Assembly (NCBI GenBank): GCA_945860915.1
Contig: CAMARR010000011.1
Coordinates: 1,394-65,393 of the forward strand
Reading direction: 5' to 3'
DNA from: Candidatus Kuenenia stuttgartensis
GTDB taxonomy: Bacteria > Planctomycetota > GCA-002687715 > CAIWVZ01
DNA: 64,000 nt
Notes under the pieces: model-generated
The model's database searches: none
Seen by the model: only the letters and a program-made list of their open reading frames with translations
What the model was told of the DNA's origin: nothing
Program-made: the position numbers and the translations under genes
In this document: piece by piece, positions 5,434-21,230 of the stretch
Layout: each line of letters opens with the position of its first letter
Numbering within the stretch: the stretch's first letter is position 1

Positions 5434-6459
5434 TTGACCCACGACGCCCAGACTTACTTCAAGACCTCTCGATCACTGTGGTTTCCGGTGTCGGTGAACG
5501 CGATGATCCTAGGCACGGTTGGGATTATCGTCTTCCAGTTGGCGACGGCCTTGCTTTGCCTTGCGTCAGGCGAGCCAGGTGCCACCCAGTACCGTTTGAT
5601 GGGGTTCCCGGTTGCCGTCACCGAACTCATCACGCACGTGCATTGGCCTGGAAACGGCGATTGGGTCTTCTGTGCACAACTTCTTATCGCCTACGTACTT
5701 TGGGCGAGGCTTGCGCCGGCCATTGCGCGCATCACGGCAGTTCGCATTGCGCGAGATCAGTACATCACCCTCGGCGAAGCGCTCCGATTTTCGGGCGTCC
5801 ACTTCAACACCGCACTTCTCCACATTCCCGCGGTCGCCCTTCCTGCAGCTTTTTGCGCATGTGTCGTAATCCTGATCGGCGCCATCAGTCAGTTCTGGGC
5901 GCCCCTGTGGATACTCGGCGCCTTGCTGCTTCCGATCGCAGTGCTCTGCACAGCGCTCGCAGGTGCGCTAGTCCTCGTGGGCACACTCGCGATGTTCTAT
6001 ACGCCTGGAGCCATCGCCGTTGAAGGCAAGCGCACGTATGACGGACTCGGAAAGACATTCAACTACCTTCTCGCCCGACCGTTCTCCGCCCTCACGCACC
6101 TCGCCCTCATCGTCATCTTCTTCCGTGTGCTCAATGCAGGCATCTTCGGTGACCTGCGAGACCGGACCGCGAGCCTTCTTGGCGTCCTCAACTTCATCGA
6201 CACCTCAAGTTTCCGCGATATCGTTCGAGGTAATTCGGATGTCGATGGCCCTGTCGCGACCTTCGCGGCCTGGCTCTGGAATGCCATGTGGTGGCTTCTG
6301 GAAGCAGTGATTACCGGAGCGTTGTTGTCTTGGGCAATTGCAGCCTGCACGTCATCGTGGTTGATCCTGCGACAGGACATCGACGGCAATGATGTCGGTC
6401 ACGTCGTGGACACAGCCGAGCTGTCGCTCGATCCTTCGTGGGAGAGCAAAAAAGACTGA
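5434..6459 (+). CDS. polytopic integral membrane protein, unknown function
   Basis: Multiple long hydrophobic segments. Divergent from the E1-like gene. TTG start at 5434, with an alternative ATG at 5503. Confidence 0.6.
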   Translation: MTHDAQTYFKTSRSLWFPVSVNAMILGTVGIIVFQLATALLCLASGEPGATQYRLMGFPVAVTELITHVHWPGNGDWVFCAQLLIAYVLWARLAPAIARITAVRIARDQYITLGEALRFSGVHFNTALLHIPAVALPAAFCACVVILIGAISQFWAPLWILGALLLPIAVLCTALAGALVLVGTLAMFYTPGAIAVEGKRTYDGLGKTFNYLLARPFSALTHLALIVIFFRVLNAGIFGDLRDRTASLLGVLNFIDTSSFRDIVRGNSDVDGPVATFAAWLWNAMWWLLEAVITGALLSWAIAACTSSWLILRQDIDGNDVGHVVDTAELSLDPSWESKKD

Positions 6460-6517: not shown

Positions 6518-8269
6518 TCACGGAATGATGGTGACTTGCGTAGCGTTCGAAGAGAACCCACTCAGAGTCGTGGGATTCGCGAACGTGACGTAGCCAAACC
6601 ACAAGCTGAGACCGGCGAGTCCAGGAACTGGCGGGATGGCAGACAATGCCGACGCATTGCCCTGTGCATCCAGGAAGCCAACGAAGTTCGAGAACAAGGG
6701 GCTGATGTTCGCGTCTTGGATTCCGAGCTGCGTGATGGCATCGAACTGAATCGGGAGCACGGTGTTGTTCTGCGAAGGATCGAACACGATCCCAGGCGCC
6801 CCGCCGGTTGCCGAAACCAACATGACGTAGAGGGAACCGGCCTGTGCCACGCCGCCGATCAAGTTCATCGCGTAGTTAGCACCGACGCCTTCCGCAATCG
6901 TATCCATTCCGTTTGCATTCAGCGGCGTCTCATAGATCTGAAGCGCGTCGATAGTCAACGGACGGCATAGCAAGTTGCTCACAATGCCCTCGCGGTAGCC
7001 AAAGTTCACCAGTCCGATGGTCGGCGTTGCCGACGTGAACTGATAGCGCGTGCCGTCAAGGATCGAGCCTACGGTGCCGCCAAAGTACGCATCAATGCGA
7101 TTGCCGGAGGTCTGAAGGCGGATGCGCTGCCAGCCATCGTTTACGCCCGCGACGATCGGAATCGTGGTGAGCACGGTCTCCGTGTCGCCGCCGTTCTTTT
7201 CATCGATAAGGCTTAGATTCATCCCGGCGACCGTTGCGTAGAACACCCAGTTGATTCCAGTCAAGCTCGACGCGTTGTTGATGCCGACTCCACCCGGGAG
7301 GGTGTAGTTGTGGAACGAATCGTCCGTCCCACGCACACCGATGCTCCACTGCTCGGTCTCCGTGCCGGTGACGCCAGTCGTACGAATGTAGACATAGCAG
7401 TCAACGGTGAGATCCGCCTTCGGAGTTGAAACCCAGCCCGATTGATTGCCACCGCCGGTGGTATCCCACGTGATCATGGCGTAGCCGCCTTGGGGCGACG
7501 TCGGGATTGCATTGGGGTTCGAATTCGCCGGGTTTGCAGAAGGAGGGCCAGAGGTCAATGGATCAATCACGCGCGGAGCGCGGAATGAGTACTGGTAACC
7601 AGCGAGGATCGCTTCGGGCACGTAGCTATCGAAATTGTCCGACATCGGAACCGTGTTCGGCTGATTATTGGTTGCCCCGGGAGTCTGAGGCATCATGCCG
7701 AAGTCGTGGCCGTTGTTGTTGGTGTCGTAGCCATCGAACCAACGCGACCACGTTTGAACAGAAGCATCGTTGGCCGTGAAGTTGCCCCAAATCGGGCCAC
7801 CTTCGATGTACTGGAGGGGATACCCGAAGGCAATCTTGTGGCCTTCGTAGGTCACGGAGTCGACGACATTGAACGCTGGATCAACTAGCGCGGTGGTTTC
7901 GTTGTCGTTCTCGAATAGGTTTGTAGACAAGGTCGGATTGACGACGACGAGATTAACGTTCGGCACCAAGGGTGATCCGATAACGTAGAATCCGCCGGGT
8001 GCGATGACGGTAGTTGCGCTTCCAGGAACCCCTGGAATCGTATAGTCGGCATTGTTGTCAGATGGCAATCCGCCAAGATTGGGATTTTGGTCCCACGACA
8101 TCAAGATCCAGCCGCTGATGTCAACGGCGGACGTCCCGGCGTTATACAGCTCGACGAATTCGCGGTCGTCGATACCGGTGTCGTCGTACTCGATTTCGTT
8201 GATGACAACTTGAGCGTGCGTCACCGCGCATAGGGCGGCAAAGCCGAGGAATAACTTCAATGACTTCAC
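6518..8269 (-). CDS. secreted lamin-tail-domain (LTD) protein with shared C-terminal module
   Basis: GTG at 8269 is preceded by GGAGAA. Signal peptide VKSLKLFLGFAALCAVTHA, followed by the LTD signature VVINEIEYDDTGIDDREFVELYN. The C-terminal ~120 aa match the module seen in 3 other genes. Confidence 0.8.
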   Translation of the reverse strand: MKSLKLFLGFAALCAVTHAQVVINEIEYDDTGIDDREFVELYNAGTSAVDISGWILMSWDQNPNLGGLPSDNNADYTIPGVPGSATTVIAPGGFYVIGSPLVPNVNLVVVNPTLSTNLFENDNETTALVDPAFNVVDSVTYEGHKIAFGYPLQYIEGGPIWGNFTANDASVQTWSRWFDGYDTNNNGHDFGMMPQTPGATNNQPNTVPMSDNFDSYVPEAILAGYQYSFRAPRVIDPLTSGPPSANPANSNPNAIPTSPQGGYAMITWDTTGGGNQSGWVSTPKADLTVDCYVYIRTTGVTGTETEQWSIGVRGTDDSFHNYTLPGGVGINNASSLTGINWVFYATVAGMNLSLIDEKNGGDTETVLTTIPIVAGVNDGWQRIRLQTSGNRIDAYFGGTVGSILDGTRYQFTSATPTIGLVNFGYREGIVSNLLCRPLTIDALQIYETPLNANGMDTIAEGVGANYAMNLIGGVAQAGSLYVMLVSATGGAPGIVFDPSQNNTVLPIQFDAITQLGIQDANISPLFSNFVGFLDAQGNASALSAIPPVPGLAGLSLWFGYVTFANPTTLSGFSSNATQVTIIP

Positions 8270-8448
8270 AGGGTTCTCCGGGCAGAGGTTAGGCGCTGGG
8301 TCGACCGCAAACCGGGCGACCATTTCGCACCCAAAGCATAGGCTCCACCGCTCTCAGGATCAAAGTAAGTCGAGTCAAGAAATGGCGAACTCAACGGGGA
8401 AATGGCCCCGGCAGCGGCAACCCCTTATGAACGCGGAGGTAACGTCGC

Positions 8449-10086
8449 CTAGCGCTGTTTCTCAAACTCATCGCCGCGAGTCCACGTGGGACGACCGGAC
8501 GCGTCGACGACACGACAGAACGCCGAAAAGAGCAGCTGGAGGTCGTCTACAGCGCCTTCAAGCCGCCAACGGGAGTCGAACTGATCCGAGGGCTGATGGT
8601 AGTGCAGAGCCGTGTAGGAGCGTTGCACCGAGCGTCGGGTCTCGCCATCTTCAAGGAAGTCGCTCCCCGATCCAAGAAAGACGGATGGCACGCCGATCCG
8701 AGCAAAATTGAAATGGTCGGAACGATAGAACAAACCAGCCTCGGGGTTTGCGTCGGGCAAGAGTTTCCGCCCACGACGGTTCGCCTCGCTGGTGAGGACA
8801 TCTGTCAGATCGCTCTTGCCGTGACCGATCAATCTAAGATCGCGAGTGCGCCCCCAGATGTTGACGCCGTCGATGTTGAAGTTGGCGACGATTTTCTTGC
8901 GGGGAATGGTCGGGTATCGCGCGAACCACTCCGACCCAAGTAGCCCCTGCTCCTCGGCCGTGACCGAAACAAAAAGGACGGACCGTCTCGGCCGCGACCC
9001 ACTAAGTGCCCGCGCAAACGCCAAGAATGCGGCACATCCGGATGCGTTGTCGAGAGCACCGTTGTAGATCGCGTCGCCACCTTTGGGTGTTCCAATTCCA
9101 AGGTGGTCGAAGTGCGCGGTTACAACAATCGCTTCATCCCTAAGCTCTGGGTCCGTTCCGGGTAAGAGCCCAACAACGTTGCCTGATTCGAGCGAGCGCA
9201 CGTCGTTTCGTGTGGCCACGGAAACCGCGACATCGAGGACAACGGGTCGGAAGTCGCGCTTCTCCGCTGCGGCGCGAAGGACGCCGAGGTCCCTGCCGCC
9301 GAGCGTAACTAGGCGCTTCGACGCCTCTTCCGTCAACCACATCGCGAGCGCAAGCGGCTGTTCCGCGCTGAAAGGTAACCAACACCGTTCCTGAGCGTGA
9401 TTCGACTGCACCACTTGGAACGGGTACGACGCGGAGGGCGTCGTGTGAATGATCATGGCACCCACCGCGCCACGCCGGCGCGCTTCCTCGTACTTGTACG
9501 TCCATCGACCATAGTAGAGACGCGTCTTGCCTGCGAACAACGATGGATCCGCCGATGGGTCATCGTTCATGATCAAGACAACCTTGCCGCGAACGTCCAC
9601 GTCCTTGAAGTCATCCCAATTCTGCTCGGGCGCCGTGATTCCATATCCGACGAACACCACCTCTGCACGCTCGATGCGGCTCTCGGTCGCTGGCGAGTAC
9701 GCGAAGCATGTCCAGTCATCGCGTTCGGCAAAGAGCGCATCGCCACCCTTCCCGAATGCCTGCAAAGGGCGGATGACCTCAGACTTGATGCCCGTGATGG
9801 GTACAGGTTGCGTAAAGCTGCCGTCCGGCATGCCGGGTTGAATCCCTGAGGAGGCTAGTGCTTGCGCAATGTAGGCGCGCGCGGCGGCATCACCGCGCTT
9901 TCCGACACCACGCCCCTCGAACTCGTCCGAGGACAAGCGCGCAATATCGGCCTTCATGCCGACAACATCGATCAGCTTCTCGCGCTCGGAGACCCGGTCG
10001 ATTCCCACGTGAGGAGGCGCGTCGCCAGTATTCGATTGGCACGATGCAAATAGCAAGCACGAGAGGACTAGAAGGATTCGGCGCAT
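8449..10086 (-). CDS. M28-family metallo-aminopeptidase lipoprotein with PA domain
   Basis: Lipobox LFASC. M28 motifs HFDHLG, NGALDNASGCA, TAEEQGLLGS and SDHFNFARIGVP are present. Confidence 0.85.
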   Translation of the reverse strand: MRRILLVLSCLLFASCQSNTGDAPPHVGIDRVSEREKLIDVVGMKADIARLSSDEFEGRGVGKRGDAAARAYIAQALASSGIQPGMPDGSFTQPVPITGIKSEVIRPLQAFGKGGDALFAERDDWTCFAYSPATESRIERAEVVFVGYGITAPEQNWDDFKDVDVRGKVVLIMNDDPSADPSLFAGKTRLYYGRWTYKYEEARRRGAVGAMIIHTTPSASYPFQVVQSNHAQERCWLPFSAEQPLALAMWLTEEASKRLVTLGGRDLGVLRAAAEKRDFRPVVLDVAVSVATRNDVRSLESGNVVGLLPGTDPELRDEAIVVTAHFDHLGIGTPKGGDAIYNGALDNASGCAAFLAFARALSGSRPRRSVLFVSVTAEEQGLLGSEWFARYPTIPRKKIVANFNIDGVNIWGRTRDLRLIGHGKSDLTDVLTSEANRRGRKLLPDANPEAGLFYRSDHFNFARIGVPSVFLGSGSDFLEDGETRRSVQRSYTALHYHQPSDQFDSRWRLEGAVDDLQLLFSAFCRVVDASGRPTWTRGDEFEKQR

Positions 10087-10132: not shown

Positions 10133-10681
10133 TCAGCTTGAGACGTCTTGCAGATACTCAAAGCCCTCACCGCGGAGGACATCGATGGAGAAGCCCGAAA
10201 TGGCGTCGCTCGGGGCGATGTAAAGCCCGCTTCCTTGAACCTGACTGAAATTGAGCATCGGAAACGCGCCGACGAGTTTCTTGTAAGTCGCCTGCTGATG
10301 CCAGGTGGGTTCAGGCAGATCGCACACCTCGCCAAGCATCACGTCGGCGCTGGAAGCAGCCTCGACGAGGAAAATGCCGCTCACGAGTATCAGCCGGCCG
10401 CCACGGCCGAAGTCTGCGTCAGGCCAACCGGCCATGGACTCAAGACCGCTCGCCCACTCTTCGTAGGTCGCATATCCCGAGTCTCTGATGAGATCCCAGG
10501 TTCCAAGGCGAGCAAATGGAATCAGCTCGACTAAAAGCGCAGAGGCTTTCGACCAGCATTGCCGCTGTGCGAGCGAATCCCCTGCCTTCCGATGGTCACG
10601 CACGACTTGACCTAACGCACGACGGGCGGATTCCTGCCCACTTGACTCGATCGCGAGTTGCACACCAAAGAACGTTGTCAT
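10133..10681 (-). CDS. hypothetical soluble protein, last gene of the ATP-grasp operon
   Basis: 182-aa ORF starting 3 nt after the upstream stop. Its layout is vaguely reminiscent of DUF1517-type proteins; this is from memory and unverified. Confidence 0.65.
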   Translation of the reverse strand: MTTFFGVQLAIESSGQESARRALGQVVRDHRKAGDSLAQRQCWSKASALLVELIPFARLGTWDLIRDSGYATYEEWASGLESMAGWPDADFGRGGRLILVSGIFLVEAASSADVMLGEVCDLPEPTWHQQATYKKLVGAFPMLNFSQVQGSGLYIAPSDAISGFSIDVLRGEGFEYLQDVSS

Positions 10682-10684
10682 CTC

Positions 10685-12079
10685 TTAGCCTCCGCTAGAA
10701 CCACCGACGCGCCCCCACGAACCACCAGGCGATGGCTTCGACGTCCTTGGCGTAAGCCCGGACACTATCGCGCTTCGCTTGGACGCACCCCCATCGAAGC
10801 CCGTGGTTGGAGCGGTCACACGTGGTTGTGTGCGATACAGGGTATCGGCAACTCCAGACGACCTCCCGCCATACCACCCATAACGGTACATCCAGTAGTG
10901 GAGCATCCACGATGATCCCGAGGAACGGCCAACTGGCTTTGTCGAAGCTTGCGATTGTGGGCGCGACTGCGCAGCTGGTGGCTCAACAGGCATGTAGGTT
11001 TCGGGAGGCGGAGAACCGACGGAGGACATCCCAAGGTGCCGGACTTCGATTCCATCTTTTTCGAGCGCGACGAATAGGTCCACAAGATCATCTTGCTCAG
11101 TAGGTTTGTCTGCGTCGGGGCGCACGTAAAGCACCTTCTTAACTCCAAGACCCCGCATCGCGGCGGAACTTGGCAACTTCGCAACCGACCGGTTGTCAAA
11201 CACATCAGGCTGATTGGCATAAGGAGCCAATCGATCGCCCTGCAAGACCCATGCTGATGGACGCGGCAGCATCCCATCCTTGCGCGATGCAAGAAACTTC
11301 GAACGCCAGTAAAGGAGTGCTCCTAGCGTTTCGTGGGACTTCACAACGCCCGAACGATGTGGAAGATTGTCGACTGTAATCACGACATCACACATCGAGG
11401 CAAGCCCCGCAGCAGCCGCCACCGCCTGCGACCCTGGTAAATCGATGATCAGGGCAAGCTCACGCTCGGCTCCAAGCGATTGGAGGGTTTCGGCCATGGC
11501 GACACCGCGGTCAAACGCCTGACGGTCTGCAGGCGACACCGATGGAACAATCCATGAAGGAGGCGTCGTACTTCCCGCGACGACGTCGCGTGGAACATCA
11601 AGTAGCGTCCGTACCATCCATGGGCGCAAGTCTTCACGGACAGGCTCGAAGTCCGCTGAAAGTGATTTGACACCAGCGCGCCACGAATCAGTGCCATCCA
11701 CTCCCACCGTCGAAGGCGAAGGAATCGTCGGTATCACCCGCTCGGCTTGCGCCTGCAAGGCGGCCTCTCGTTCCCTCAAGGAGGCATCACTCGAATTGGA
11801 GGACACGAGGTGTGCAATGGTCGAAACAACTACACCAACAACCGCGATGGCAATTATTGTCGGGACGACAGAAAATCGTCGCTTTCCAAGCGGAGCGTCG
11901 CTCGCGCGCCCCTTCACCCAATCCGACGAGGTCTCCCCCGATGGCGCGGAGTCGAGCCCACCCAGTGTTAGGTCTGCTGCCGTGCTCTTCACATGTTGTG
12001 TTGAGGTGAAGCGCACCGCGATGAGTGATCGGCTGTCGAAAAATACTTCTGTCAAGAATGCATCGGCTGCGTCGCTCAT
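10685..12079 (-). CDS. single-pass membrane protein with DUF1190 (YgiB/YjfM)-like C-terminal tail
   Basis: One TM segment (VVPTIIAIAVVGVVVSTIAHLV). The tail SSGSSWMLHYWMYRYGWYGG...TTGFDGGASKRS...SSGG resembles the E. coli YgiB C-terminus as I recall it. 4-nt overlap with the upstream ligase gene. Confidence 0.7.
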   Translation of the reverse strand: MSDAADAFLTEVFFDSRSLIAVRFTSTQHVKSTAADLTLGGLDSAPSGETSSDWVKGRASDAPLGKRRFSVVPTIIAIAVVGVVVSTIAHLVSSNSSDASLREREAALQAQAERVIPTIPSPSTVGVDGTDSWRAGVKSLSADFEPVREDLRPWMVRTLLDVPRDVVAGSTTPPSWIVPSVSPADRQAFDRGVAMAETLQSLGAERELALIIDLPGSQAVAAAAGLASMCDVVITVDNLPHRSGVVKSHETLGALLYWRSKFLASRKDGMLPRPSAWVLQGDRLAPYANQPDVFDNRSVAKLPSSAAMRGLGVKKVLYVRPDADKPTEQDDLVDLFVALEKDGIEVRHLGMSSVGSPPPETYMPVEPPAAQSRPQSQASTKPVGRSSGSSWMLHYWMYRYGWYGGRSSGVADTLYRTQPRVTAPTTGFDGGASKRSAIVSGLTPRTSKPSPGGSWGRVGGSSGG

Positions 12080-13311
12080 GGCTCGACTCCAACCGGACAG
12101 ATTTGGGCGAGCCCGTCGGTCGCGCCCTCGGATGTCCGCGCCAATACTCCGGAGGGCGCCGACCCCACCATCCAGACTCCCAAGTTGCAGATATCGCCGT
12201 TGCTATCGCGTTGCGGAACGAATGCTCGTTGCGCTACCCAACGTCGAGGCCGCATCTGAATGATCGACTCCGCCCAGACCTCGGGAGTTGTTGCGGATCC
12301 GAGGATGACCTCTTCGCCCTCGCATCCGTAATCGGACTTAAGCACCCAGTCCATTTGCTCATCCAAGAGGACCCCGGCCGGTACGTTCTCTGCAAAGTGA
12401 GTCTCGGGGAATGTCGCACGGGCAACCCCTTCGAGCTCGGCGGAGATGAGCCCCGGCATTTCCCAAGGCAAAGCCATGACCCGCTTGTTCTGAGGAATTG
12501 CGGCAGCGAAAGGATTGATGACGTTGACCTTGCCCGCGCCCAGTGCATCGGCGATGGCAAGAAACTCCCGCCCAAGCGGCGAAGCATCCGGTGGGTCTGG
12601 TTCGTCGAGCCAGATGGCCTCGCGTACTCCCCACCAGTCTGTCTTGTAGTGACGCAGCAAGAGGTCGCACTTCTTTCCAAACATACCTACGCCACGGTCT
12701 GAATGTGATTCGATGTTAAACGGCGAGCCCCGAACCACTTGACACCCCATCTCTCCAAGCCAACGCATGAGCAGCCGCGTGTGATTGGTGTCTTCGGTCA
12801 TCTCTGTCGGCTCAATTAGTCCGACGGTTGCCCCCCTAGGATCTTTGCCGAGGGCCTCGTTGACGGCCGACTTCCATCTCGGCTCAAGGAGGAGCGACGG
12901 ATGGCGCAGTTGCGGATGGCGGGCAGAACCGAGTCGCGACGACTCGATGGTCTCGGCCAATCCGGTCGGCGTATCGCAGTTGATTTCGCACGCAATTGGT
13001 CCGGAGCCCGTGTTCGTTTCAAAGACATCAACCCGCGCGAAAGTCAACCAACGTGGAGCATCGATGGACGCGATGGCCTGCAACGACGCCGGAATACCCA
13101 GAGATGCCATGACATCGGGGCGCTTGACGAGGACATTTACGTAGGCGTCTAGCACGCGGCACATCGAAACTGCGCACCCCGCCAGGCTCCCGAGGCGCCC
13201 CGCCGTCAGCACGATGGGATTTGCGTTGAATCGCAGGCGCCCCCCAACCCACGGGTCGCCAATGAGGCCGTGCCCTAGGATTTCGTCAGCGATTTTGGAG
13301 GAGTTCACCAT
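12076..13311 (-). CDS. glutathionylspermidine-synthase-family ATP-grasp ligase (YgiC/YjfC-like)
   Basis: GSP_synth-type motifs: CEINCDTPTGLAE, LLRHYKTDWW, VINPFAAAIPQNKRVMALPWE, WVLKSDYGCEGEEV. Confidence 0.85.
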   Translation of the reverse strand: MVNSSKIADEILGHGLIGDPWVGGRLRFNANPIVLTAGRLGSLAGCAVSMCRVLDAYVNVLVKRPDVMASLGIPASLQAIASIDAPRWLTFARVDVFETNTGSGPIACEINCDTPTGLAETIESSRLGSARHPQLRHPSLLLEPRWKSAVNEALGKDPRGATVGLIEPTEMTEDTNHTRLLMRWLGEMGCQVVRGSPFNIESHSDRGVGMFGKKCDLLLRHYKTDWWGVREAIWLDEPDPPDASPLGREFLAIADALGAGKVNVINPFAAAIPQNKRVMALPWEMPGLISAELEGVARATFPETHFAENVPAGVLLDEQMDWVLKSDYGCEGEEVILGSATTPEVWAESIIQMRPRRWVAQRAFVPQRDSNGDICNLGVWMVGSAPSGVLARTSEGATDGLAQICPVGVEP

Positions 13312-14096
13312 GCTGATGACAGCACCAACGCTGCGAATATGTAGCCTAGCCCTTCAACGCCACCAATCCACGGATCGCGATCAACGGAGACCCTACGGTC
13401 GAGCTCGGTTGGCGTCATATCGAGGACCAATCGCGCCACGACGAACTGTCTGAATGGGTAGAGCGCCAAGACCCAGACTAGGGAACGTCCGAAGGCTACG
13501 AGGGACGGACGCCATCCGTCAAACGTCCCCTCGGTCGCGCCGACGACCATCAGAGCAACCGAGAGGTGGAGTCCTGCGGAGGCCAACGCGGCTGCAATGT
13601 TCCCGGCGGCAACTTCATCCTGATCTCTAAAGCCTGTCACTTTGCGATGCGTTGCGCAGATCACGATGAGGGCAAGCCAACAGATACCGGCATAGGCAGC
13701 GCCAATGACGAATGACTGACCATCGACACCGCCAAAGCAGGCGGTCGAGACCGCTGCCGCTCCAAAAATGTGTGCGGTCCCTTGGATCGCGGCTGCGGGA
13801 TTGCTCGAGGCCAAAGAGCTCAGCCTCGGGAGCGGATACGCAAGGCTCACGAGCAAGTAGCCGAGCGGAAGCGCCAACACGGCAGCGACAATCTGGACAC
13901 TGGCCCATGCAAGATGAGTGCCGTCAATCGCCTTGAGTCGCGAAGCCCAGTCGCCGGCGTCGGGCACAAGTGCGACCACCGAAACCACTGCGTGGTCCAC
14001 GGCGGAAAGCACGGTTGCCGCGAGCGCGAGATGCATTGCCCCGCGAAGGAGTCGGGCAGGCACTGGTTGCGCGATCGAATTCGCAGAGGTCGTCAT
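13305..14096 (-). CDS. DUF350-like polytopic membrane protein (apparently two DUF350-type halves)
   Basis: Hydrophobic throughout. FRDQDEVAAGNIAAALASAGLHLSVALMVVGA matches the DUF350/YjfL signature as I recall it. Overlaps the ligase start by 7 nt. Confidence 0.75.
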   Translation of the reverse strand: MTTSANSIAQPVPARLLRGAMHLALAATVLSAVDHAVVSVVALVPDAGDWASRLKAIDGTHLAWASVQIVAAVLALPLGYLLVSLAYPLPRLSSLASSNPAAAIQGTAHIFGAAAVSTACFGGVDGQSFVIGAAYAGICWLALIVICATHRKVTGFRDQDEVAAGNIAAALASAGLHLSVALMVVGATEGTFDGWRPSLVAFGRSLVWVLALYPFRQFVVARLVLDMTPTELDRRVSVDRDPWIGGVEGLGYIFAALVLSSAW

Positions 14097-14193
14097 GTCA
14101 CCGCTCCTCCGTCATCGGACTACTGACGTGTGAGAAGCCTAGGCTTATTGGCAGCGCGTGGCAAGGCGGACCCAATCGGACTACCATGCGCAC

Positions 14194-15231
14194 ATGCGAG
14201 GCGAACTGGCACAGAAAGACACGAGGCTGAAAGCGTGGTGTGCCGCCACGGGCCATGACGGCATTCACCTCCGAACTCGTGCGAACGTTGCGTGGATCAC
14301 GGGTGGTTCCGACGTTTGCGTTGATCGTGCTTCTCCTCTCGGCGTCGCAAGTGTGCTTTGGACGCCACACGAGAAAGTGGTTCTGACCGATACGATCGAG
14401 GCTCGCCGTTTATTGGACGAAGAGGTTCCGTCAGGGTTCTCAATCTCTGCACATGACTGGTTCTCCTCTTCGACGCCGATCGCTGACGGCATCGCGACCG
14501 ACTTCCCGAATGACCCAATCACCGCGCTTCGCGCTCCGCTCACGCGCGAAGAAATTACCCGCTATCGCAAGCTCGGCTTTCTTGTGTCCACCGTCGTCGA
14601 ATCCGTGCTCAAGGACGTGCGAGTCGGAGATTCCGAGCTAGAGGTCGCGGGGCGACTCGCGGGAGTCCTTGCAACGCGCGGTGTGTCCTGTCCCGTGACA
14701 CTCGCCGCAGCCGACGGTCGTATCGCGGCTTACCGTCACCCGATCCCAACCAACTTGCGCATCGAGAAGGCGCTCATGCTCATCGTGTGCGCGGAGCGAC
14801 AGGGACTCATTGTCGCCATGACTCGCCTGATCCACTTCGGAGCCATCGCGAGCGACCTGCGAGCGCGTCATCACGCTTGCTGTACGGTGGACACGGCACT
14901 CCACAACGCGACGCAATACGGAACACCGCTTGCCGACATTTTCAGTTTGGCACAGCGGACCTACGCTGAAATGGGATTCGATGGCGAATGGTGCTTCCAC
15001 CATCAGGGTGGCCCCATTGGGTATCGGCCGCGTGACGCCATCGTCGTGCCGCAGGGCCCCGGACTTGTGCTTAAAGGGCAAGCCTATGCGTGGAACCCGT
15101 CAATTACGGGAACGAAAAGTGAAGACACGATCCTCGCGGGGGGAGAGGTACTAACGCCGTGCATCGACTGGCCGCTTGAAGAGTCGGGCCGGCCAGATTG
15201 GCTAGTGCGGCCCGCTACTCGTCGACGATAA
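14194..15231 (+). CDS. M24-family (creatinase/prolidase fold) peptidase
   Basis: N-terminal creatinase-like region followed by a pita-bread fold region (HHQGGPIGY, WNPSITGTKSEDT). ATG at 14194 inside track ORF 14158..15231. Confidence 0.75.
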   Translation: MRGELAQKDTRLKAWCAATGHDGIHLRTRANVAWITGGSDVCVDRASPLGVASVLWTPHEKVVLTDTIEARRLLDEEVPSGFSISAHDWFSSSTPIADGIATDFPNDPITALRAPLTREEITRYRKLGFLVSTVVESVLKDVRVGDSELEVAGRLAGVLATRGVSCPVTLAAADGRIAAYRHPIPTNLRIEKALMLIVCAERQGLIVAMTRLIHFGAIASDLRARHHACCTVDTALHNATQYGTPLADIFSLAQRTYAEMGFDGEWCFHHQGGPIGYRPRDAIVVPQGPGLVLKGQAYAWNPSITGTKSEDTILAGGEVLTPCIDWPLEESGRPDWLVRPATRRR

Positions 15232-15993
15232 TCAACTTCCGCGCAAAGCGAGCAGAAGCGACTCTCTGTGCTGCGTCCAGGCCTCAAGCACGTCGTTCGA
15301 CCTCGTGTGCTCGAGGGTGATGACCCCGATACCTAGGTCGCGGCCGGCCCAGGAGCCGAGCGAACCTGGTGTCGGAAACCCGATCTCCGCTTTCAGCGGA
15401 AAAAGCGAAAGCCGAGCCATCTCAGCCGCGAGTTCCGCCGCCGGGCCATCGAAGTTGATGCAGCGCAGCGGCTGGTGAATCGAGATGATCCGCTTTGGCT
15501 TGTACTTGCTAATGAGCATCGCCAAAAAAGTCGATTCCGGCTCCGATAGCGGCGCTGGACCTCGCTTGGCCGCTGCATCGAAGTTCCCAGCCGGGAAGTT
15601 TCGGTTTAAGTCGACACCGCGCGCGTTGAATCTACGGTTCTCTGCAAGGCCGTCTGGGTTCAGCACAGGAACGAAGATGGCGGTGCGTCCCTCGAGAGTC
15701 GCCGTGTTCGTCTTGATCTCCTCCATCAGTCGACCGAGAAGCCCCTGACCAACAGGTTCAGATCCGTGAACCACGCCGACAAAGAGCACATGTTCGGAGC
15801 CGCTTCCAATCGAGAACGCTTCAATCGGTCGGCCTTCGACGGACATCGCACGATCTACGGATTCTCGCCAAATCCCCGTTGAAGAGTTCCGATTCGACGT
15901 TGAGACTGGCGATGAGCCCGCCATGTCAGTTTCTCCGCCGGATGCGCACGCGAGGAGAAGACACGGCAATAGCAGCACAATGAACTTGTTCAT
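15232..15993 (-). CDS. M14-family zinc carboxypeptidase lipoprotein (MpaA / gamma-D-Glu-DAP amidase-like)
   Basis: Lipobox LLLACA. M14 motifs VVHGSEPVG, LNPDG, RFNARGVDLNRNFP and SIHQP are present. Confidence 0.85.
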   Translation of the reverse strand: MNKFIVLLLPCLLLACASGGETDMAGSSPVSTSNRNSSTGIWRESVDRAMSVEGRPIEAFSIGSGSEHVLFVGVVHGSEPVGQGLLGRLMEEIKTNTATLEGRTAIFVPVLNPDGLAENRRFNARGVDLNRNFPAGNFDAAAKRGPAPLSEPESTFLAMLISKYKPKRIISIHQPLRCINFDGPAAELAAEMARLSLFPLKAEIGFPTPGSLGSWAGRDLGIGVITLEHTRSNDVLEAWTQHRESLLLALRGS

Positions 15994-16041
15994 GGGCGAG
16001 CAGTCTAGCCGCCAATTCGGTGGCCGCGTAGGGCCTCGTCG

Positions 16042-17772
16042 TCATGCGCAGCCTCGTGTCATGGTGATCGCCAATCGCCGGATGCTGCCGGGGTCTGCCA
16101 TCGAAGCTGTCTTGGGTAGGATTCCATGGCGCCGCACATCAACGACCTCGTCGCGCGTGTGGCCTCCGGGCTTGCGGCGAGCACTGCTCCGGACTCGACT
16201 CCAGTCTTCATTCCGGAGTGCGCTACGCGTCGCAACCGCGGCAAGACTCGCTGCGGTCGCGAGTGCTGTATCGATCTCCTTGACCGATAGACGCGGAGGC
16301 CTTCCAGTCATCCATTCAGCCATCGCCACTGGAATTGCGGCGATGTCGTCGCCGATGTCCGATCCAACGACCGCGTCGAGAGCGCGATCTAGAAAGTGCT
16401 GTCGAGCGTGCGGGTCGTCGTGCGCCCGTAACGCCATATCAACCGTCAGCGTCACATAACGGGCTCTCAAGACCGGGTCATCTTCATGCGCGAGAGCCGC
16501 GGCAAGCATACAGACGGCACCCAGTCCATCGCCAGCCGACTCTCGCAAGGCGGCACGTGTCGCTCCGATACATGCCTTGACTGCCTGAGGAATCATCGAC
16601 TTCATCGCATAGCGCAAATGAGCGTCGGCGTGTTCAAGGCGTCCGTCCTCGACTGCGACCCACGCGAGTCCGACGTCCGCGGCCGGGCACCCTTCTGCGA
16701 CGGAGGCAGTCAACACTGCGACACCTTCGGCACGTCGGCCAAGGTCCAACATGGCGAGGCCGCCGAGCGTCGCAAGCGTTGGAGTACGAGCGCTTTCCGA
16801 AAGCACGGCGGCTCTAAGCGCCCCTTCAGCATCTCCTGACAAGAGTGCGGCGCGCGCCGCGACGGCGGCTAAGTCGACATCTTTGCGTTGCAGGTCGCCG
16901 AAATGCGCCACATGCTCGCGCGCCTCCGGCAACGCACCGACTCGATCGGCGAGGTGCGCTCCACGCTTTCTAAGGAGTGACGGCTCCCCGCCAGGCCATG
17001 GTGCGGAATGGGCGTCAGCATCTAGGAGTTCGAGGAGCGGCGCGTCTTCGGGCAGCCCTCGCTCGATGCAGGCCTTCCTACACGCCTGCGCAAACGCGAA
17101 GCGTCGAGTGCACGTGGCGGCCTCTAGCGCCGACGCAGCTCGATCGAGCAGCACTGCGGCTGCCGTGACATCTCCTATAAGCTCGGCAAGACTCGCCTCC
17201 ACGACAAGTCGTCGCGGCCCATCTTCATTCGACTTAGCAAGTTCAAGAAATCCGCGAGCTTGGTCCACCCGACCCTCGCATAGAAGCACCTCGGCGAGGT
17301 CGCTCGCGGCGAGTGGGTAGGTCGGATCATGGGCGAGCGCCTTGCGAAAGGCCTCGGCTGCATCAGGCAAGCGGCCTGCGCGCGCGAGGAGACGCCCTCG
17401 TGCGTGGTGAGCGCGTCCAAGGAACGCCGCGGGAATTGCCTTCGCCATCAGCGCGCGGTCGAGGCTTGCAGCGAGGGAGTTGAGGTCACTTGTGCGCGCT
17501 GGACGACTATCTTCAGCCGTCGCGATCAACACGATGTGATGAGCCCCCAAGACCCTCGCAGCGGATCTGAAGCCGCGCTTCAGGAGTCGTTCAGCAAGCC
17601 GCTCGCCTTCCTGCCCAGCCTCGGACCCACTTGCGAAGAGTGCGGATGCCGAAGCGACAGCACCGACGTCATCGTCGGCATCGACGGCACGTCGCAGCAA
17701 TGCCAGATGATTAGACGACTGCGCCCCGCCAAAAGCCGCTGTGTCGCTGAGTTGAATAGGGTTGTCTCTCAC
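16042..17772 (-). CDS. Ala-rich TPR-like helical repeat protein
   Basis: 576-aa ORF. Contains repeated helical-hairpin segments of TPR type (AAEAFRKALAHDPTYPLAASDLAEVLL). No catalytic motif seen. Confidence 0.6.
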   Translation of the reverse strand: MRDNPIQLSDTAAFGGAQSSNHLALLRRAVDADDDVGAVASASALFASGSEAGQEGERLAERLLKRGFRSAARVLGAHHIVLIATAEDSRPARTSDLNSLAASLDRALMAKAIPAAFLGRAHHARGRLLARAGRLPDAAEAFRKALAHDPTYPLAASDLAEVLLCEGRVDQARGFLELAKSNEDGPRRLVVEASLAELIGDVTAAAVLLDRAASALEAATCTRRFAFAQACRKACIERGLPEDAPLLELLDADAHSAPWPGGEPSLLRKRGAHLADRVGALPEAREHVAHFGDLQRKDVDLAAVAARAALLSGDAEGALRAAVLSESARTPTLATLGGLAMLDLGRRAEGVAVLTASVAEGCPAADVGLAWVAVEDGRLEHADAHLRYAMKSMIPQAVKACIGATRAALRESAGDGLGAVCMLAAALAHEDDPVLRARYVTLTVDMALRAHDDPHARQHFLDRALDAVVGSDIGDDIAAIPVAMAEWMTGRPPRLSVKEIDTALATAASLAAVATRSALRNEDWSRVRSSARRKPGGHTRDEVVDVRRHGILPKTASMADPGSIRRLAITMTRGCA

Positions 17773-17858
17773 GTCGAAGGTCCGTCCCTATCTCTGTCGG
17801 CAGGAACGCCTTTCTGACAGTGCTCTTGCAAATCCACCCAATTGGCTACATTTCTTCC

Positions 17859-18761
17859 ATGGCGGACTCAGGCGCGCGCGGGGCGACGATCGAAGACCTC
17901 GCTTTCATTGAGGACATCTGCAGAGACATCGCTCTCAAGACGCGAAGCTCCGTCTTGCCCTACCCTGCATTTGCGCTGGCGCTCGGGGATTCACTCATAG
18001 TCCACCGCGCTACGAAGGACGGGCGAACTATCGCTCTGGCAACAGCCATCGATCGAGGTCGGGAGCTCGACCTTTTCTTGATTGCTGTGTCATTCAGCCA
18101 ACGTCGGACGGGAATCGCAGGAGAGTTGCTTGACCAGCTGACCGCGCAGCATCTGAAGGTCGGGAAGAGCCGCCGGATCTTCGCGAACTGCTGGCCAGGA
18201 TCAGGCGGAGGCCCTGGCGCGTTGCTCGCCGCCGGATTCTCGACGGCCCCGGGCAAGGTCCGATGGACTCGCGATGCAGGCCCAACGTCGATTCCGCCTG
18301 CGAAAGTATCCCTCCTTCAGTGGAATGACTTAAAGAGCATCTCCCTCGACCGGCGGGCCCGTCTCTTGGGAGCGGTGGGTGCCGCGTGGCCAGGCGATGC
18401 CGACCCTGTCCCGGTACTGGCGGCGCTCAGCTCGGCACGCGACTCGCAAATCCTCATAGGACTCCACAACGACGAGGTCAAGGCTGTTCTCGCCGGCGTT
18501 TCGGTTGGCGACACGTTCCATATTCTGCTTGGCTTCGAAATCGAAACAGGGCATGGCGAAGGGATCGACGGCGGTCTTGCGATCCTCCTCGAAAACGCCA
18601 AAACCTGTGGCGTGAAGAGCCTTTCCGTCGAAACGGCGGTTCCAACTGCCAGAACCGCTCCAACCCTTACTCGCCTCGGATTCCGATCGGTCGAGGCGGC
18701 GGCGGGCTTCCTCGCCGGGACTCCCGGCCACGCTTTCGAAGGAAACGCCTTCGCACTATGA
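17859..18761 (+). CDS. tandem GNAT-family N-acetyltransferase
   Basis: First half carries the GNAT core LIAVSFSQRRTGIAGELLDQL. Second half has a GNAT-like beta-alpha pattern. ATG at 17859; the track start is GTG at 17820. Confidence 0.7.
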   Translation: MADSGARGATIEDLAFIEDICRDIALKTRSSVLPYPAFALALGDSLIVHRATKDGRTIALATAIDRGRELDLFLIAVSFSQRRTGIAGELLDQLTAQHLKVGKSRRIFANCWPGSGGGPGALLAAGFSTAPGKVRWTRDAGPTSIPPAKVSLLQWNDLKSISLDRRARLLGAVGAAWPGDADPVPVLAALSSARDSQILIGLHNDEVKAVLAGVSVGDTFHILLGFEIETGHGEGIDGGLAILLENAKTCGVKSLSVETAVPTARTAPTLTRLGFRSVEAAAGFLAGTPGHAFEGNAFAL

Positions 18762-19816: not shown

Positions 19817-19958
19817 TCCTTCAAGGTCGCCATCAAGCGCCCCCGGGTCATTGATCTGGGGGCGTTTTCATTGCCACCGGGACAAAAATCGCAATGATGA
19901 TGGCCGAATGAACCCAAGCGTCGGCGACACCCCGCCACCACGATCAGGACAAACCACC

Positions 19959-21230
19959 ATGCGTTTCGCGGCCATAATTTTAGGACTCGTCGCCAGCACC
20001 GCTTCGCTCCTCGCTCAAACCGAGGCCGCGCCAACAACGATGCCGACGAAGCACGCGTGGATCCGCATGGGAGGCGACCCTGCAACGAAATCAACCCTGG
20101 AAATCGCGCTACGTCGATTCGATCGACCTGACGGAATCGCTGTCACCCTAGTAGGCGTTGCCCACGTTGGTGAAAAGAGTTTCTACGAAGCACTTCAACA
20201 GAAACTGAATACCTTTGATGTGGTCCTCTACGAGTCGGTGCTTCCAGACGGAGCATCACGCCCCGAGGGCTCGAACGACACGGAGCGAACAGAAGCAACG
20301 ACTCGCTCACTCAAGTTCCTAGGTGACACCGCGCGGCGCTTTCGCGAGGAGGCGGGTGCGTGGCCTCTCACAATCGACGAACTCGGCGCATGGGCAAAGA
20401 AGCTAGACCCGCGAGTCGGTCATGGTGTTCGCAACGCATCAACAGACGCATGGGGCATTGCGATCACCTGCGCCGTTGACGCTGCAACCGGGGAATTCAC
20501 GGTTCAAACCACGAGTCGCGATGGTCGCCCATCCTTGACATTCAAAGTCGAACTCCCGACGTCGAAGCCAACCGACAAAAAACCCAAGAAAGCTCCGAGC
20601 AACGTCCAACGGGACTTGGCTCACGCCCTCGGCCTCTCATATCAACTCGACGGCATCGACTATGCCGGTGCCAGCTTCGTTCATGCGGACGCAACCCTCG
20701 GTGATGTCGAACGCGGAATGAAAGCTGCGGGTGGGAACTTCGAGCGAATCGACTCACTTCTGCGAGGATCGGGTCCGATGGGCACGGTCCTTCAACTCAT
20801 GATCAGTCTGATCAAGAACTCCAGTGACGACACCAAAGGAATGATGCGTGGCCTCTTGGTCGAGCTCTTAGCCTCGGCCGACGACAGAATGACCGACGCT
20901 CTCGGCAAAGGAACGTCAGACGTGATCGTTGGGATGCGTAATCGCGTGGCGTTCCGTGAACTTGACCGCTTTCTGATGCAGTCTCGTCCACCTCGGACAA
21001 TCGCGATCTTCTACGGGGCACTGCACCTCGACGACATGTCCGCACGGCTCGAAGAGCGCGGGTTTCGTGCAAGCGCAGCCGACTGGCTCACCGCCATCAC
21101 TGCCGAAGCAACGCCGGGCGGCAACGACAACCTGCGCAAGCAGCTGCTTGGAGGCATGAAGAAGGCCGGAGAAAAGCGTAAAGCACCGACATCACGTCCC
21201 GACTCAAAGCCGGCAAACGAAGGTCGCTAG
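19959..21230 (+). CDS. secreted TraB/GumN-family-like protein
   Basis: ATG at 19959 gives signal peptide MRFAAIILGLVASTASLLAQ. VTLVGVAHVGEKSFY...VVLYE and a C-terminal IAIFYGALHL pattern resemble TraB/GumN; this is from memory. Confidence 0.55.
   Translation: MRFAAIILGLVASTASLLAQTEAAPTTMPTKHAWIRMGGDPATKSTLEIALRRFDRPDGIAVTLVGVAHVGEKSFYEALQQKLNTFDVVLYESVLPDGASRPEGSNDTERTEATTRSLKFLGDTARRFREEAGAWPLTIDELGAWAKKLDPRVGHGVRNASTDAWGIAITCAVDAATGEFTVQTTSRDGRPSLTFKVELPTSKPTDKKPKKAPSNVQRDLAHALGLSYQLDGIDYAGASFVHADATLGDVERGMKAAGGNFERIDSLLRGSGPMGTVLQLMISLIKNSSDDTKGMMRGLLVELLASADDRMTDALGKGTSDVIVGMRNRVAFRELDRFLMQSRPPRTIAIFYGALHLDDMSARLEERGFRASAADWLTAITAEATPGGNDNLRKQLLGGMKKAGEKRKAPTSRPDSKPANEGR

Follow-up and report, generated by a model that had tools for sequence, protein, structure and literature searches.

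A widespread four-gene operon encoding a glutathionylspermidine-synthase-family ligase and a predicted envelope protein with an acid-free tail

The best-known member of the GSP_synth family, GspS, is encoded by E. coli gss and joins the Gly carboxylate of glutathione to spermidine; trypanothione synthetase belongs to the same Pfam family. Amidase-less ligases of this family, YgiC and YjfC, are encoded in the E. coli ygiBC and yjfKLMC loci next to YgiB and YjfM. These are exported lipoproteins, and in all of their orthologues the motif RGG[FY]G[RE] is followed by a terminal [WMFY]GG. RefSeq names YgiC and YjfC as peptide-spermidine ligases, an activity that Pederick et al. 2023 are reported to have found in vitro (cited in PMC11762307). 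The view taken in the initial annotation of our locus, that the substrates and role of both enzymes are wholly unassigned, is outdated as far as their in vitro substrates are concerned. Related "SpermGS-ATPgrasp" operons, both PspA-associated and PspA-free, were described by Ravi et al. 2024, who proposed that they are connected with polyamine metabolism and with membrane stress (PMC11237479). The variants set out there carry DUF1190, DUF2491, a K+ channel, DUF4247 and DUF2617 or band-7/SHOCT, with AdoMet decarboxylase and polyamine oxidase.

In the 64,000-nucleotide stretch of DNA analysed here (the window), the ORF listing confirmed four minus-strand genes, which we call A to D (Table 1). 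Their tight coupling was exactly as first annotated: A and B overlap by 7 nt (13305-13311), B and C overlap by 4 nt (12076-12079), and C and D are separated by a 3-nt gap (10682-10684). The start codons of all four genes were consistent with the N-termini of their homologues in alignments, and no terminator-like site above chance was found in the intergenic spaces between A and D.

Table 1. Genes and sequence features of the operon in the window
Feature	Position	Strand	Description and basis
Gene A	13305..14096	-	263 aa; ORF
Gene B	12076..13311	-	411 aa; ORF
Gene C	10685..12079	-	464 aa; ORF
Gene D	10133..10681	-	182 aa; ORF
Shine-Dalgarno-like GGAGGAG	14104..14110	-	7 nt 5' of the gene A ATG; direct sequence reading
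C aa 8-26	12002..12058	-	N-terminal (cytoplasmic) motif FFDxxxLIAVRF, equivalent to GARWW in the wider family; alignments
C aa 66-92	11804..11884	-	Twin-arginine KRRFSVV, then hydrophobic segment; predicted signal anchor
C aa 128-358	11006..11698	-	Conserved core with five-stranded alpha/beta domain; AF2 and alignments
C aa 385-464	10688..10927	-	Arg/Gly/Ser-rich tail ending ...VGGSSGG; AF2 disorder and alignments
C aa 452-464	10688..10726	-	GGSWGR plus 7 small residues, the last being Gly; family statistics

The gene association on which the initial annotation had relied was found to recur in related and distant genomes. At least 15 independent contigs, whose flanking genes are unrelated, carry the cassette genes together, their order being permuted once. 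Their range covers Planctomycetota, Verrucomicrobiota and a wider clade, again with differing flanks; in a Verrucomicrobiota MAG the order is D-A-B-C with all four genes still together, and the same four genes occur with the ligases of the wider clade (38-43% identity). In all contexts that were examined, gene C follows directly after the ligase gene, and gene tables gave a B/C stop-start overlap of 1-4 nt in nine of ten other contexts, the exception being L090. Two contigs carry B-C without A and D. Overall, A-B-C-D is a real, self-contained and vertically conserved operon, and B-C is the invariant core of the cassette, to which A and D are added in most versions, this one included. No polyamine biosynthesis gene was consistently present near the cassette.

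Gene B matched GSP_synth (PF03738) with 51.7 bits against a Pfam cut-off of 29.3, as expected from its first assignment, and 706 homologues were found. Its identity to E. coli GspS, YgiC and YjfC in alignments is only 16-18% (16% to GspS), and a phmmer search with B found no GspS chain in PDB. Residues R93, D95, E109, N111, D113, E120, E173, K276, K325 and R392 are invariant across all four proteins, and B thereby keeps the alignment-invariant residues of the GspS and trypanothione synthetase family both in the R-x-D ... E-x-N-x-D-T-P region and further downstream. Unlike GspS, B carries a clade-specific insertion (RHYKTDWW...) and lacks both a counterpart of the N-terminal ~200 aa of GspS and a CHAP amidase domain; it has no signal peptide either. 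Amidase-less and this distant, B does not fall in with the amidase-bearing GspS enzymes, the placement that the initial annotation had held to count against its own interpretation. These comparisons identify B as an amidase-less ATP-grasp amide ligase of the glutathionylspermidine-synthase family.

Gene A matched DUF350 (PF03994) with 48.1 bits against a cut-off of 26, as had been claimed for it. The duplication of the DUF350 signature was upheld in part: the profiles of the N- and C-terminal halves resembled each other across an N-x-AAAI motif (hhalign probability 69%, E 4e-5), but when the halves were scanned separately with Pfam the domain was seen only in aa 129-263. With about 6-8 hydrophobic/TM segments and a homologue in the four-gene cassettes, A is a polytopic membrane protein of the DUF350 (YjfL) family; its C-terminal half is a clear DUF350 domain, its N-terminal half a degenerate repeat. 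Gene D, originally described as soluble and of no known family, indeed gave no Pfam or NCBIfam match and is neither DUF2491 nor DUF2170. It has 29 close relatives, and distant homologues (28-35% identity) lie within the wider cassettes; Q8, R20, R40, W62-D63, E74, W76, E81, C120-D121 and Y154 are invariant. Its AF2 model (pLDDT 95, pTM 0.91) found no match in PDB or BFVD with Foldseek, and D is a cytoplasmic protein with a new alpha/beta fold, its family being unnamed.

Gene C likewise gave no Pfam, NCBIfam or PDB match, in keeping with the earlier remark that nothing outside its tail was recognisable. Its family comprises 19 close relatives, and 872 clusters (50% identity) match the core profile. 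Four parts can be distinguished: an N-terminal motif, a twin-arginine signal/anchor, an alpha/beta domain and a disordered Arg/Gly/Ser tail. The N-terminal motif is modelled by AF2 in this C as a low-confidence beta-hairpin, and its GARWW-like form is present in 73 of 134 full-length members. A single hydrophobic segment follows at about aa 69-92, so that the single-pass assignment was borne out. The pair RR precedes the h-region in 107 of the 134 members (80%) as against 9% of control windows, and the K+R count is 2.9 before the segment and 1.0 after it, a charge bias that points to an N-in topology. A lipobox-like Cys was found in 37/134 members and is absent from the C of this window. We interpret the segment as a signal anchor in this C; across the wider family it is a Tat-type signal that often carries a lipobox. 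Tat dependence of this C is uncertain because its anchor is very hydrophobic and lacks a lipobox. In the core, D213, G216, N238, R283, D295-N296-R297, Y318 and D331 are invariant and P240-H241 near-invariant in alignments. The AF2 pLDDT of the core is mostly about 75-95, dipping to 51-57 near aa 281-300, and Foldseek of the C model against PDB gave no match (best E 0.096); the alpha/beta domain is new. C as a whole is an envelope protein, either exported or anchored, and its family is unnamed.

The tail of C is mostly modelled with pLDDT <50 (aa 365-430 and 447-464), rising to ~64 around 431-446, where AF2 predicts a helix at 432-442. It contains the short conserved motifs SSW..YW.YRYGW, YR..PR.T, DGG and GGSWGR. 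Across the family, RSGS[FW]GR stands about 7 residues before a terminal Gly, Ser or Ala. A strict regex found this motif within the final 40 aa in 102 of 162 members, some of the remainder being fragments. Among those 102, the motif-to-C-terminus distance is 7 in 51 members, 8 in 28 and 6 in 9, and the chain ends with G in 70 members, with S in 26 and with A in 6. Not one of the 102 has an Asp or Glu between motif and C-terminus, and D+E account for 1.3% of the last 60 aa in the family as against 10.3% overall.

The parallel drawn earlier with ygiBC and yjfKLMC is a reasonable one as far as architecture goes. In all of these loci the gene for an amidase-less GspS-family ligase lies beside one for an exported envelope protein whose tail is rich in Gly/Ser/Arg and ends in small residues; yjfKLMC also encodes a DUF350 membrane protein and one further protein without assigned function, and the two-gene (B-C) and four-gene cassettes mirror ygiBC and yjfKLMC, respectively. 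Beyond the low identity of the ligases, the differences are that C is not a detectable DUF1190 protein and that a twin-arginine signal and a ~230-aa core replace the Cys-rich segment. Compared with the yjf version (part of yjfIJKLMC), A is a double-length DUF350 protein, a PspA/CesT dyad is missing, D belongs to neither of the DUF families excluded above and the gene order is different. The operons of Ravi et al. also combine a GspS-like ligase with YjfL/DUF350 (4TM or 8TM) and a cell-surface lipoprotein, but none of their extra partner genes is present here, and no mention of the C and D families was found in the available part of PMC11237479. What this comparison adds to the initial annotation is the wide distribution of the cassette, its B-C core, the predicted twin-arginine signal in C and the acid-free tail with its fixed distance to the C-terminus.

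As a tentative reading, possible rather than probable, we propose that B forms an amide between a carboxylate, possibly the C-terminus of C before export, and a polyamine-type amine. B would work in the cytoplasm, like its characterised relatives: it would use ATP to turn the carboxylate into an acyl-phosphate and couple this to an amine, a polyamine being the most likely choice. The best candidate would be the alpha-carboxylate at the C-terminus of the tail of C, since this conserved segment holds no other carboxylate. RimK, which acts on ribosomal protein S6, and tubulin tyrosine ligase are ATP-grasp enzymes that likewise activate the carboxylate at the C-terminal end of one particular protein; they belong to other subfamilies than B, add amino acids rather than polyamines and involve no export step, and so may serve as a conceptual precedent only. 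Modification would have to precede export, because the mature tail and the ligase would lie on opposite sides of the membrane, and a Tat-type signal allows export of a folded, modified protein. The twin-arginine signal/anchor is predicted to place the rest of C outside the cytoplasm, and a fully cationic tail would be displayed at the envelope. We can only guess that A is an accessory, either a membrane partner or a conduit for amine or conjugate, and that D serves in the cytoplasm, either as an adaptor for C or as a thiol enzyme reversing or controlling the ligation. In functional terms the module could correspond, among Planctomycetota, Verrucomicrobiota and other lineages, to the envelope-stress-associated ygiBC and yjfKLMC of enterobacteria. 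The conservation of the operon, the B/C coupling, the invariant ligase residues, the fixed-distance, acid-free disordered tail, the RR bias and the YgiC/YjfC precedent are in favour of this reading, and the tail suggests an undescribed polyamine-type tagging system. Against it, B-C co-occurrence fits other mechanisms equally well and the tail may act instead as a signal for sorting or for binding.

Several other explanations were weighed. Chance adjacency, or mis-called ORFs in GC-rich DNA, can be practically dismissed: many spurious ORFs do overlap the region, as expected at 60% GC, but the homologues of A-D in many contigs are under selection and keep the gene order and the stop/start overlaps, and the recurrence of the cassette elsewhere already refutes the idea. 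The initial annotation had assigned the last ~90 aa of C to DUF1190, and C might accordingly be a true, very divergent YgiB/YjfM in which an alpha/beta domain was swapped in for the Cys-rich segment, making the operon orthologous to yjfLMC. Both partners share the operon logic (DUF350, GspS-like ligase and exported protein) and an N-terminal export signal. In both, a hydrophobic W...G segment is followed by a G-x-aromatic-G-R/E motif and then by small residues at the C-terminus. However, PF06693 (DUF1190) matched none of 61 C-family members (19 close, 42 diverse), whereas it does match YgiB and YjfM; hhalign of the C family against YgiB, YjfM and the DUF1190 profile gave probabilities <1%, and an HMM of the C tail scored YgiB and YjfM no better than their own shuffles. 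BLASTP of C against YgiB returned E=0.07 in a single pairwise comparison. The conserved DUF1190 Cys residues are also missing from the C family and the ligases are only 16-18% identical. The DUF1190 part of the earlier interpretation was accordingly not borne out, even as the operon, DUF350 protein, ligase, single-pass protein and conserved association held, and we regard common descent as improbable. The remaining likeness (export, Gly/Ser/Arg-rich tail, G-x-aromatic-G-R motif and small-residue end) is best viewed as analogy.

Tat proofreading chaperones bind twin-arginine signals, and D could be a dedicated cytoplasmic chaperone of C, binding its N-terminal motif or twin-arginine signal, or be co-exported with it, with the ligase acting on D or elsewhere. 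D is small, well-folded, cytoplasmic, better conserved than C and encoded right after it, and C has a conserved motif upstream of its RR signal; this role is nevertheless very improbable, as two-gene versions without D still have that motif and RR, D shows no similarity to known signal-binding chaperones, and its Cys-Asp pair and further invariant polar residues point to a site for catalysis or for a ligand. A small-molecule route, only slightly less likely than the tagging of C, would have B make a soluble amide conjugate in the cytoplasm, for example of an amino acid or short peptide with a polyamine, as GspS makes glutathionylspermidine; A would move the conjugate or polyamine across the membrane, the periplasmic domain of C would bind, sense or process it, and D would be a cytoplasmic hydrolase or regulator. 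This leaves unexplained both the B-C coupling without A and D and the strongly constrained acid-free tail; no transport function has been demonstrated for DUF350, and D lacks an invariant His of the CHAP-amidase kind. It nonetheless agrees with the small-molecule substrate of the best-known family member, and D, with invariant polar residues including C120-D121, would stand in for the amidase domain of bifunctional GspS that B is missing. The many invariant Asp, Asn, Arg and Tyr residues and the near-invariant His of the C core are also typical of a ligand or catalytic site. A is polytopic and its family co-occurs with polyamine genes in other operon types (PMC11237479), and one relative has a 1045-aa Spermine_synth protein three genes away.

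The cassette comprises four minus-strand genes, named here A to D, which are predicted to code for a DUF350 membrane protein (A), an amidase-less GspS-family ATP-grasp ligase (B), an exported or anchored envelope protein (C) and a cytoplasmic protein (D). The operon described in the initial annotation was recovered with exact coordinates, and the ORF listing reproduced its junctions: overlaps of 7 nt between A and B and of 4 nt between B and C, and a 3-nt spacer between C and D. A GGAGGAG Shine-Dalgarno sequence was located upstream of A. Terminator-like sites above chance were not found between the cassette genes, nor was a sigma-70-like promoter among the regulatory signals sought, and no tRNA gene or Rfam family at gathering score was present anywhere in the 64-kb window (1-64000), whose nearest relatives are Planctomycetota MAGs. 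The adjacent M28 peptidase gene may be co-transcribed with the cassette, since it shares the strand of D, begins 46 nt past the D stop codon and is not set off from D by a terminator-like site. The M28, M24 and M14 genes do not neighbour the cassette in any other lineage examined, and conserved extra neighbours were discarded as a possibility since the flanks differ in every lineage compared. The 601-aa protein coded just past the M28 gene has a signal-like N-terminus and carries a Lamin Tail Domain (PF00932, 57 bits) in its N-terminal part, while three putative genes near the cassette (313, 341 and 459 aa) gave no Pfam match at E<=1e-4.

Table. Positions of the cassette genes and of surrounding features in the window
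Feature	Position	Strand	Remark
Gene A, 263 aa	13305..14096	-	ORF listing
Gene B, 411 aa	12076..13311	-	ORF listing
Gene C, 464 aa	10685..12079	-	ORF listing
Gene D, 182 aa	10133..10681	-	ORF listing
M28 peptidase with PA domain	8449-10086	-	flanks cassette
M24 metallopeptidase	14158-15231	+	flanks cassette
M14 carboxypeptidase	15232-15993	-	flanks cassette
601-aa protein	6518-8323	-	just past M28 gene
313-aa ORF	17820-18761	+	putative gene
341-aa ORF	5434-6459	+	putative gene
459-aa ORF	19851-21230	+	putative gene

The association of these genes was found to recur in related and in more distant contigs with unrelated flanks. In a word-indexed search C had 19 relatives and D had 29, of planctomycete-type origin, on contigs carrying the same four genes in otherwise unrelated surroundings, and all four genes were present at each of the eight GTDB loci located by D patterns. 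Searching with the ligase gave 706 matches, many at 38-43% identity and one of them in a MAG labelled Polyangiaceae, the taxonomic reach of this wider family being read from few labelled MAGs. Three contigs of the wider ligase clade were found to code for a DUF350 protein (~250 aa), a GSP_synth protein (~420 aa) and two further proteins of ~450-460 and ~195 aa; the longer of the two is homologous to C (33-35% identity, E 1e-37 to 1e-47) and the shorter to D (31-33% identity, E 1e-30 to 1e-36). The four-gene form was seen in two further contexts, and the stop of B overlaps the start of C in nine of ten other contexts. Since two contexts keep only B followed by C, this pair is the invariant core of the cassette.

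Protein B matched the Pfam GSP_synth family (PF03738) with 51.7 bits, the cut-off being 29.3, over profile positions 52-368 of 371, in agreement with its earlier assignment as a GspS-family ATP-grasp ligase. In an alignment of B with seven cassette ligases and E. coli YgiC, YjfC and GspS, ten residues were invariant throughout (R93, D95, E109, N111, D113, E120, E173, K276, K325 and R392); we take these, from GspS structure papers, to serve in Mg/ATP binding. B aligns solely to the C-terminal ~420 aa of GspS, leaving the N-terminal ~200 columns of the GspS alignment empty; the N-terminal CHAP amidase domain is absent, and B does not group with the amidase-bearing GspS enzymes. With the invariant residues kept, the amidase absent and an identity of 16-18% to YgiC, YjfC and GspS, B is probably an active, divergent member of the family. 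A sequence search for solved relatives of B matched just a spurious ATP-phosphoribosyltransferase stretch, which was disregarded.

Protein A scored 48.1 bits against Pfam DUF350 (PF03994; the YjfL family), above the gathering score of 26, and contains six to eight hydrophobic segments. Its DUF350 assignment was thereby upheld, and the proposal that the signature is duplicated stood in part. When residues 129-263 were scanned alone they matched DUF350 across profile positions 10-132 of 133 (46.5 bits), whereas residues 1-128 alone gave no Pfam match at E<=1; profiles of the two halves nevertheless aligned with an hhalign probability of 69% (E 4e-5), N-x-AAAI lying at the middle of the 32 aligned columns. 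As only the C-terminal half matches Pfam and the N-terminal half aligns to it at the profile level, the apparent duplication may be read as a degenerate first repeat. Double-length (8TM) YjfL-family proteins are already mentioned by Ravi et al. (PMC11237479).

Protein C matched nothing in Pfam, NCBIfam, the PDB or PADLOC, and a profile search with its family found no solved relative. A profile of the C core nevertheless retrieved 872 clusters of metagenome proteins at 50% identity among 1.84 billion representatives, of which 312 fell below E 1e-30, nearly all being 420-540 aa long with the same layout. The N-terminus carries a conserved motif, which reads FFDxxxLIAVRF in the window's copy and mostly GARWW across the family; after it come a twin arginine, usually as [ST]RRxxL, and then a hydrophobic segment. 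Of 134 full-length members, 107 have the twin arginine no more than 18 residues ahead of the h-region, as against 9% of control windows; a lipobox-like Cys follows the hydrophobic segment in 37 of the 134, and Lys+Arg average 2.9 before the segment and 1.0 after it. The family thus fits a Tat-type signal pattern, in which the twin arginine precedes a moderately hydrophobic h-region with an optional lipobox Cys. On the strength of the twin arginine and hydrophobic segment, the charge bias and the lipobox-like Cys, the bulk of C is predicted to lie outside the cytoplasm, and in most lineages C resembles a protein or lipoprotein exported by a Tat-type signal. In the window's copy, KRRFSVV is followed by a very hydrophobic segment without a Cys, and for this reason an uncleaved anchor appears more likely there.

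The core of C (residues ~128-358) was modelled mostly with a pLDDT of about 75-95, dipping to 51-57 near residues 281-300, and includes a predicted five-stranded alpha/beta domain within ~208-350. Residues D213, G216, N238, R283, D295-N296-R297, Y318 and D331 of the core are invariant and P240-H241 nearly so. Fold searches with the model gave just generic Rossmann-like parts of unrelated enzymes (E about 0.1) and were set aside. A candidate Rosetta-stone ligase fusion, protein P0197, was likewise rejected, its long N-terminus being Arg-rich rather than a ligase and its start probably mis-called.

The last ~100 residues of C are mostly predicted to be disordered, with short conserved motifs and a helix of modest confidence at 432-442; the window's copy ends in ...SPGGSWGRVGGSSGG, within its last 15-20 residues. 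The last tail motif of the family, R-S-G-S-[FW]-G-R (GGSWGR in the window's copy), is followed by 7 residues to the C-terminus in 51 members, 8 in 28 and 6 in 9, and the chain terminates in Gly (70 members), Ser (26) or Ala (6). None of 102 C sequences has an Asp or Glu between this motif and the end, and Asp+Glu make up 1.3% of the last 60 residues of the family versus 10.3% overall. The initial annotation had likened this tail to DUF1190, the family of the E. coli proteins YgiB and YjfM. The resemblance (SSGSxWM... and a Gly-rich end) is visible in C, with an E of 0.07 by BLASTP against YgiB in a single pairwise comparison, but membership of DUF1190 found no support. PF06693 gave no match in C (E<=1), in 19 close relatives (E<=10) or in 42 diverse ones (E<=0.1), while the positive controls YgiB and YjfM scored 187 and 64 bits. 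Probabilities from hhalign of the C-terminal ~100 aa were 0.15-0.5% against YgiB and YjfM, and 0.14% for the tail against a DUF1190 profile purpose-built from metagenome loci. With an HMM of the C tail, run against 1000 shuffles, YgiB and YjfM scored no better than shuffled sequences and lay below most of 500, and the Cys residues common to YgiB and YjfM after the lipobox have no counterpart in C, which has the alpha/beta domain in that place. As every formal test failed, we do not file C under DUF1190 on present sequence comparisons.

DUF1190 orthologues are comparable to C by analogy only: they too are exported, and at the metagenome loci L017-L088 all YjfM- and YgiB-type proteins end in [WMFY]GG, with RGG[FY]G[RE] 10-25 residues before. 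Such a conserved ending may have a bearing on what the adjoining peptide-spermidine ligases use as substrate.

Protein D gave no match in Pfam (E<=1), NCBIfam or PADLOC, nor to solved relatives by sequence. Its AlphaFold model (pLDDT 95, pTM 0.91) found at best an E of about 0.1 and a TM below 0.3 when compared by Foldseek with the PDB and BFVD, and the modelled fold is thus confidently predicted and without a solved relative. C120-D121 is invariant in the family. Assignment of D to DUF2491 (YjfK) or DUF2170 (YjfI) was discarded, with a D-family hhalign probability of 0.2% and Pfam silent at E<=1. Two of the four cassette families, C and D, are named in no database. PADLOC-DB models of defence systems matched none of A, B, C or D at E<=0.01, and by this measure the cassette is not a defence system.

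The reaction catalysed by GspS links spermidine to glutathione through the Gly carboxylate of the latter. Its relatives YgiC and YjfC, coded in the E. coli ygiBC and yjfKLMC loci, are named peptide--spermidine ligases in RefSeq; they are described, in passages of PMC11762307 (relating Sui 2012 and Pederick 2023) and PMC12506659, as ligating peptides to spermidine in vitro without GspS activity. It is a widespread arrangement for a GspS-like ligase to be coded beside a DUF350 protein and an envelope lipoprotein; in E. coli, Citrobacter and Pseudomonas such ligases have been linked to envelope stress, and PMC11237479 ties operons of this kind to polyamines and membrane stress. Cpx induces YgiB, which builds up in a tail-specific-protease mutant, and a tolC-linked growth defect is reported in E. 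coli. The cassette may be likened both to ygiBC/yjfKLMC and to the 'SpermGS-ATPgrasp' operons of Ravi et al., but differs from these systems in that DUF1190, DUF2491, DUF4247, DUF2617 and PspA are all absent: a similar logic appears to be built here with two protein families named in no database.

Judged from sequence, the module consists of a cytoplasmic ligase, B, and an obligately coupled exported partner, C, with a constrained acid-free tail, A and D being frequent accessories. The model that we tentatively prefer is that B amidates the C-terminus of C with a polyamine-type amine before export. Since an ATP-grasp ligase such as B requires a carboxylate, and the C-terminus is the only one that the conserved tail offers, this terminus is a plausible target. 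Its spacing from a recognition-like motif is fixed and it belongs to a tiny residue, as in glutathione, and a Tat-type signal would permit modification in the cytoplasm followed by export. A could then act as a membrane partner or conduit, and D, with its invariant C120-D121, as an adaptor or as a controlling or reversing enzyme. The main rival, in our view only slightly less likely, is that B makes a small conjugate that is moved by A and bound by C. Family precedent speaks for such a conjugate, and co-occurrence of the cassette genes is predicted by both models; the tail statistics and the minimal B-C core, however, favour amidation of C.

A fuller version of the amidation model, in which B and C form a protein-tagging system based on pre-export polyamine amidation of C, YgiC-YgiB and YjfC-YjfM do the same, and D is a controlling enzyme of new fold or an adaptor, seems to us unlikely as a whole. 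If true, it would represent a bacterial post-translational modification not yet described, and YgiB (...SRSMGG) and YjfM (...RGHWGG) would supply the physiological substrate of the peptide-spermidine ligases. The tail of C, acid-free, of fixed length from its motif and ending in a tiny residue on a protein with a Tat-type signal, makes C-terminal amidation directly testable, and the outcome for B-C would carry over to ygiBC and yjfMC. Even if amidation proved wrong, the cassette would have yielded two protein families that are new and a two-gene minimal core.

Variations in layout were observed at individual loci. A Verrucomicrobiota MAG (locus L012, 6995-11169) retains all four genes on one strand in the permuted order D-A-B-C. 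Locus L090 (2899-5752) and the contig of protein P0195 hold a ligase and C with neither a DUF350 gene nor D nearby; a 120-aa ORF without assignment follows C in the latter, and in the former the opposite strand holds a coiled-coil-like ORF of 198 aa upstream. At the distant cassette of locus L089, a 271-aa ORF without a Pfam match (172-987) shares 4 nt with the beginning of the DUF350 gene and may represent a fifth cassette gene there. On the contig of P0019, which among planctomycete-type relatives diverges most, a Spermine_synth domain occurs in a 1045-aa protein coded three genes downstream of the cassette on the opposite strand (13116-16253); this neighbour, seen once only, is a possible link to polyamines.
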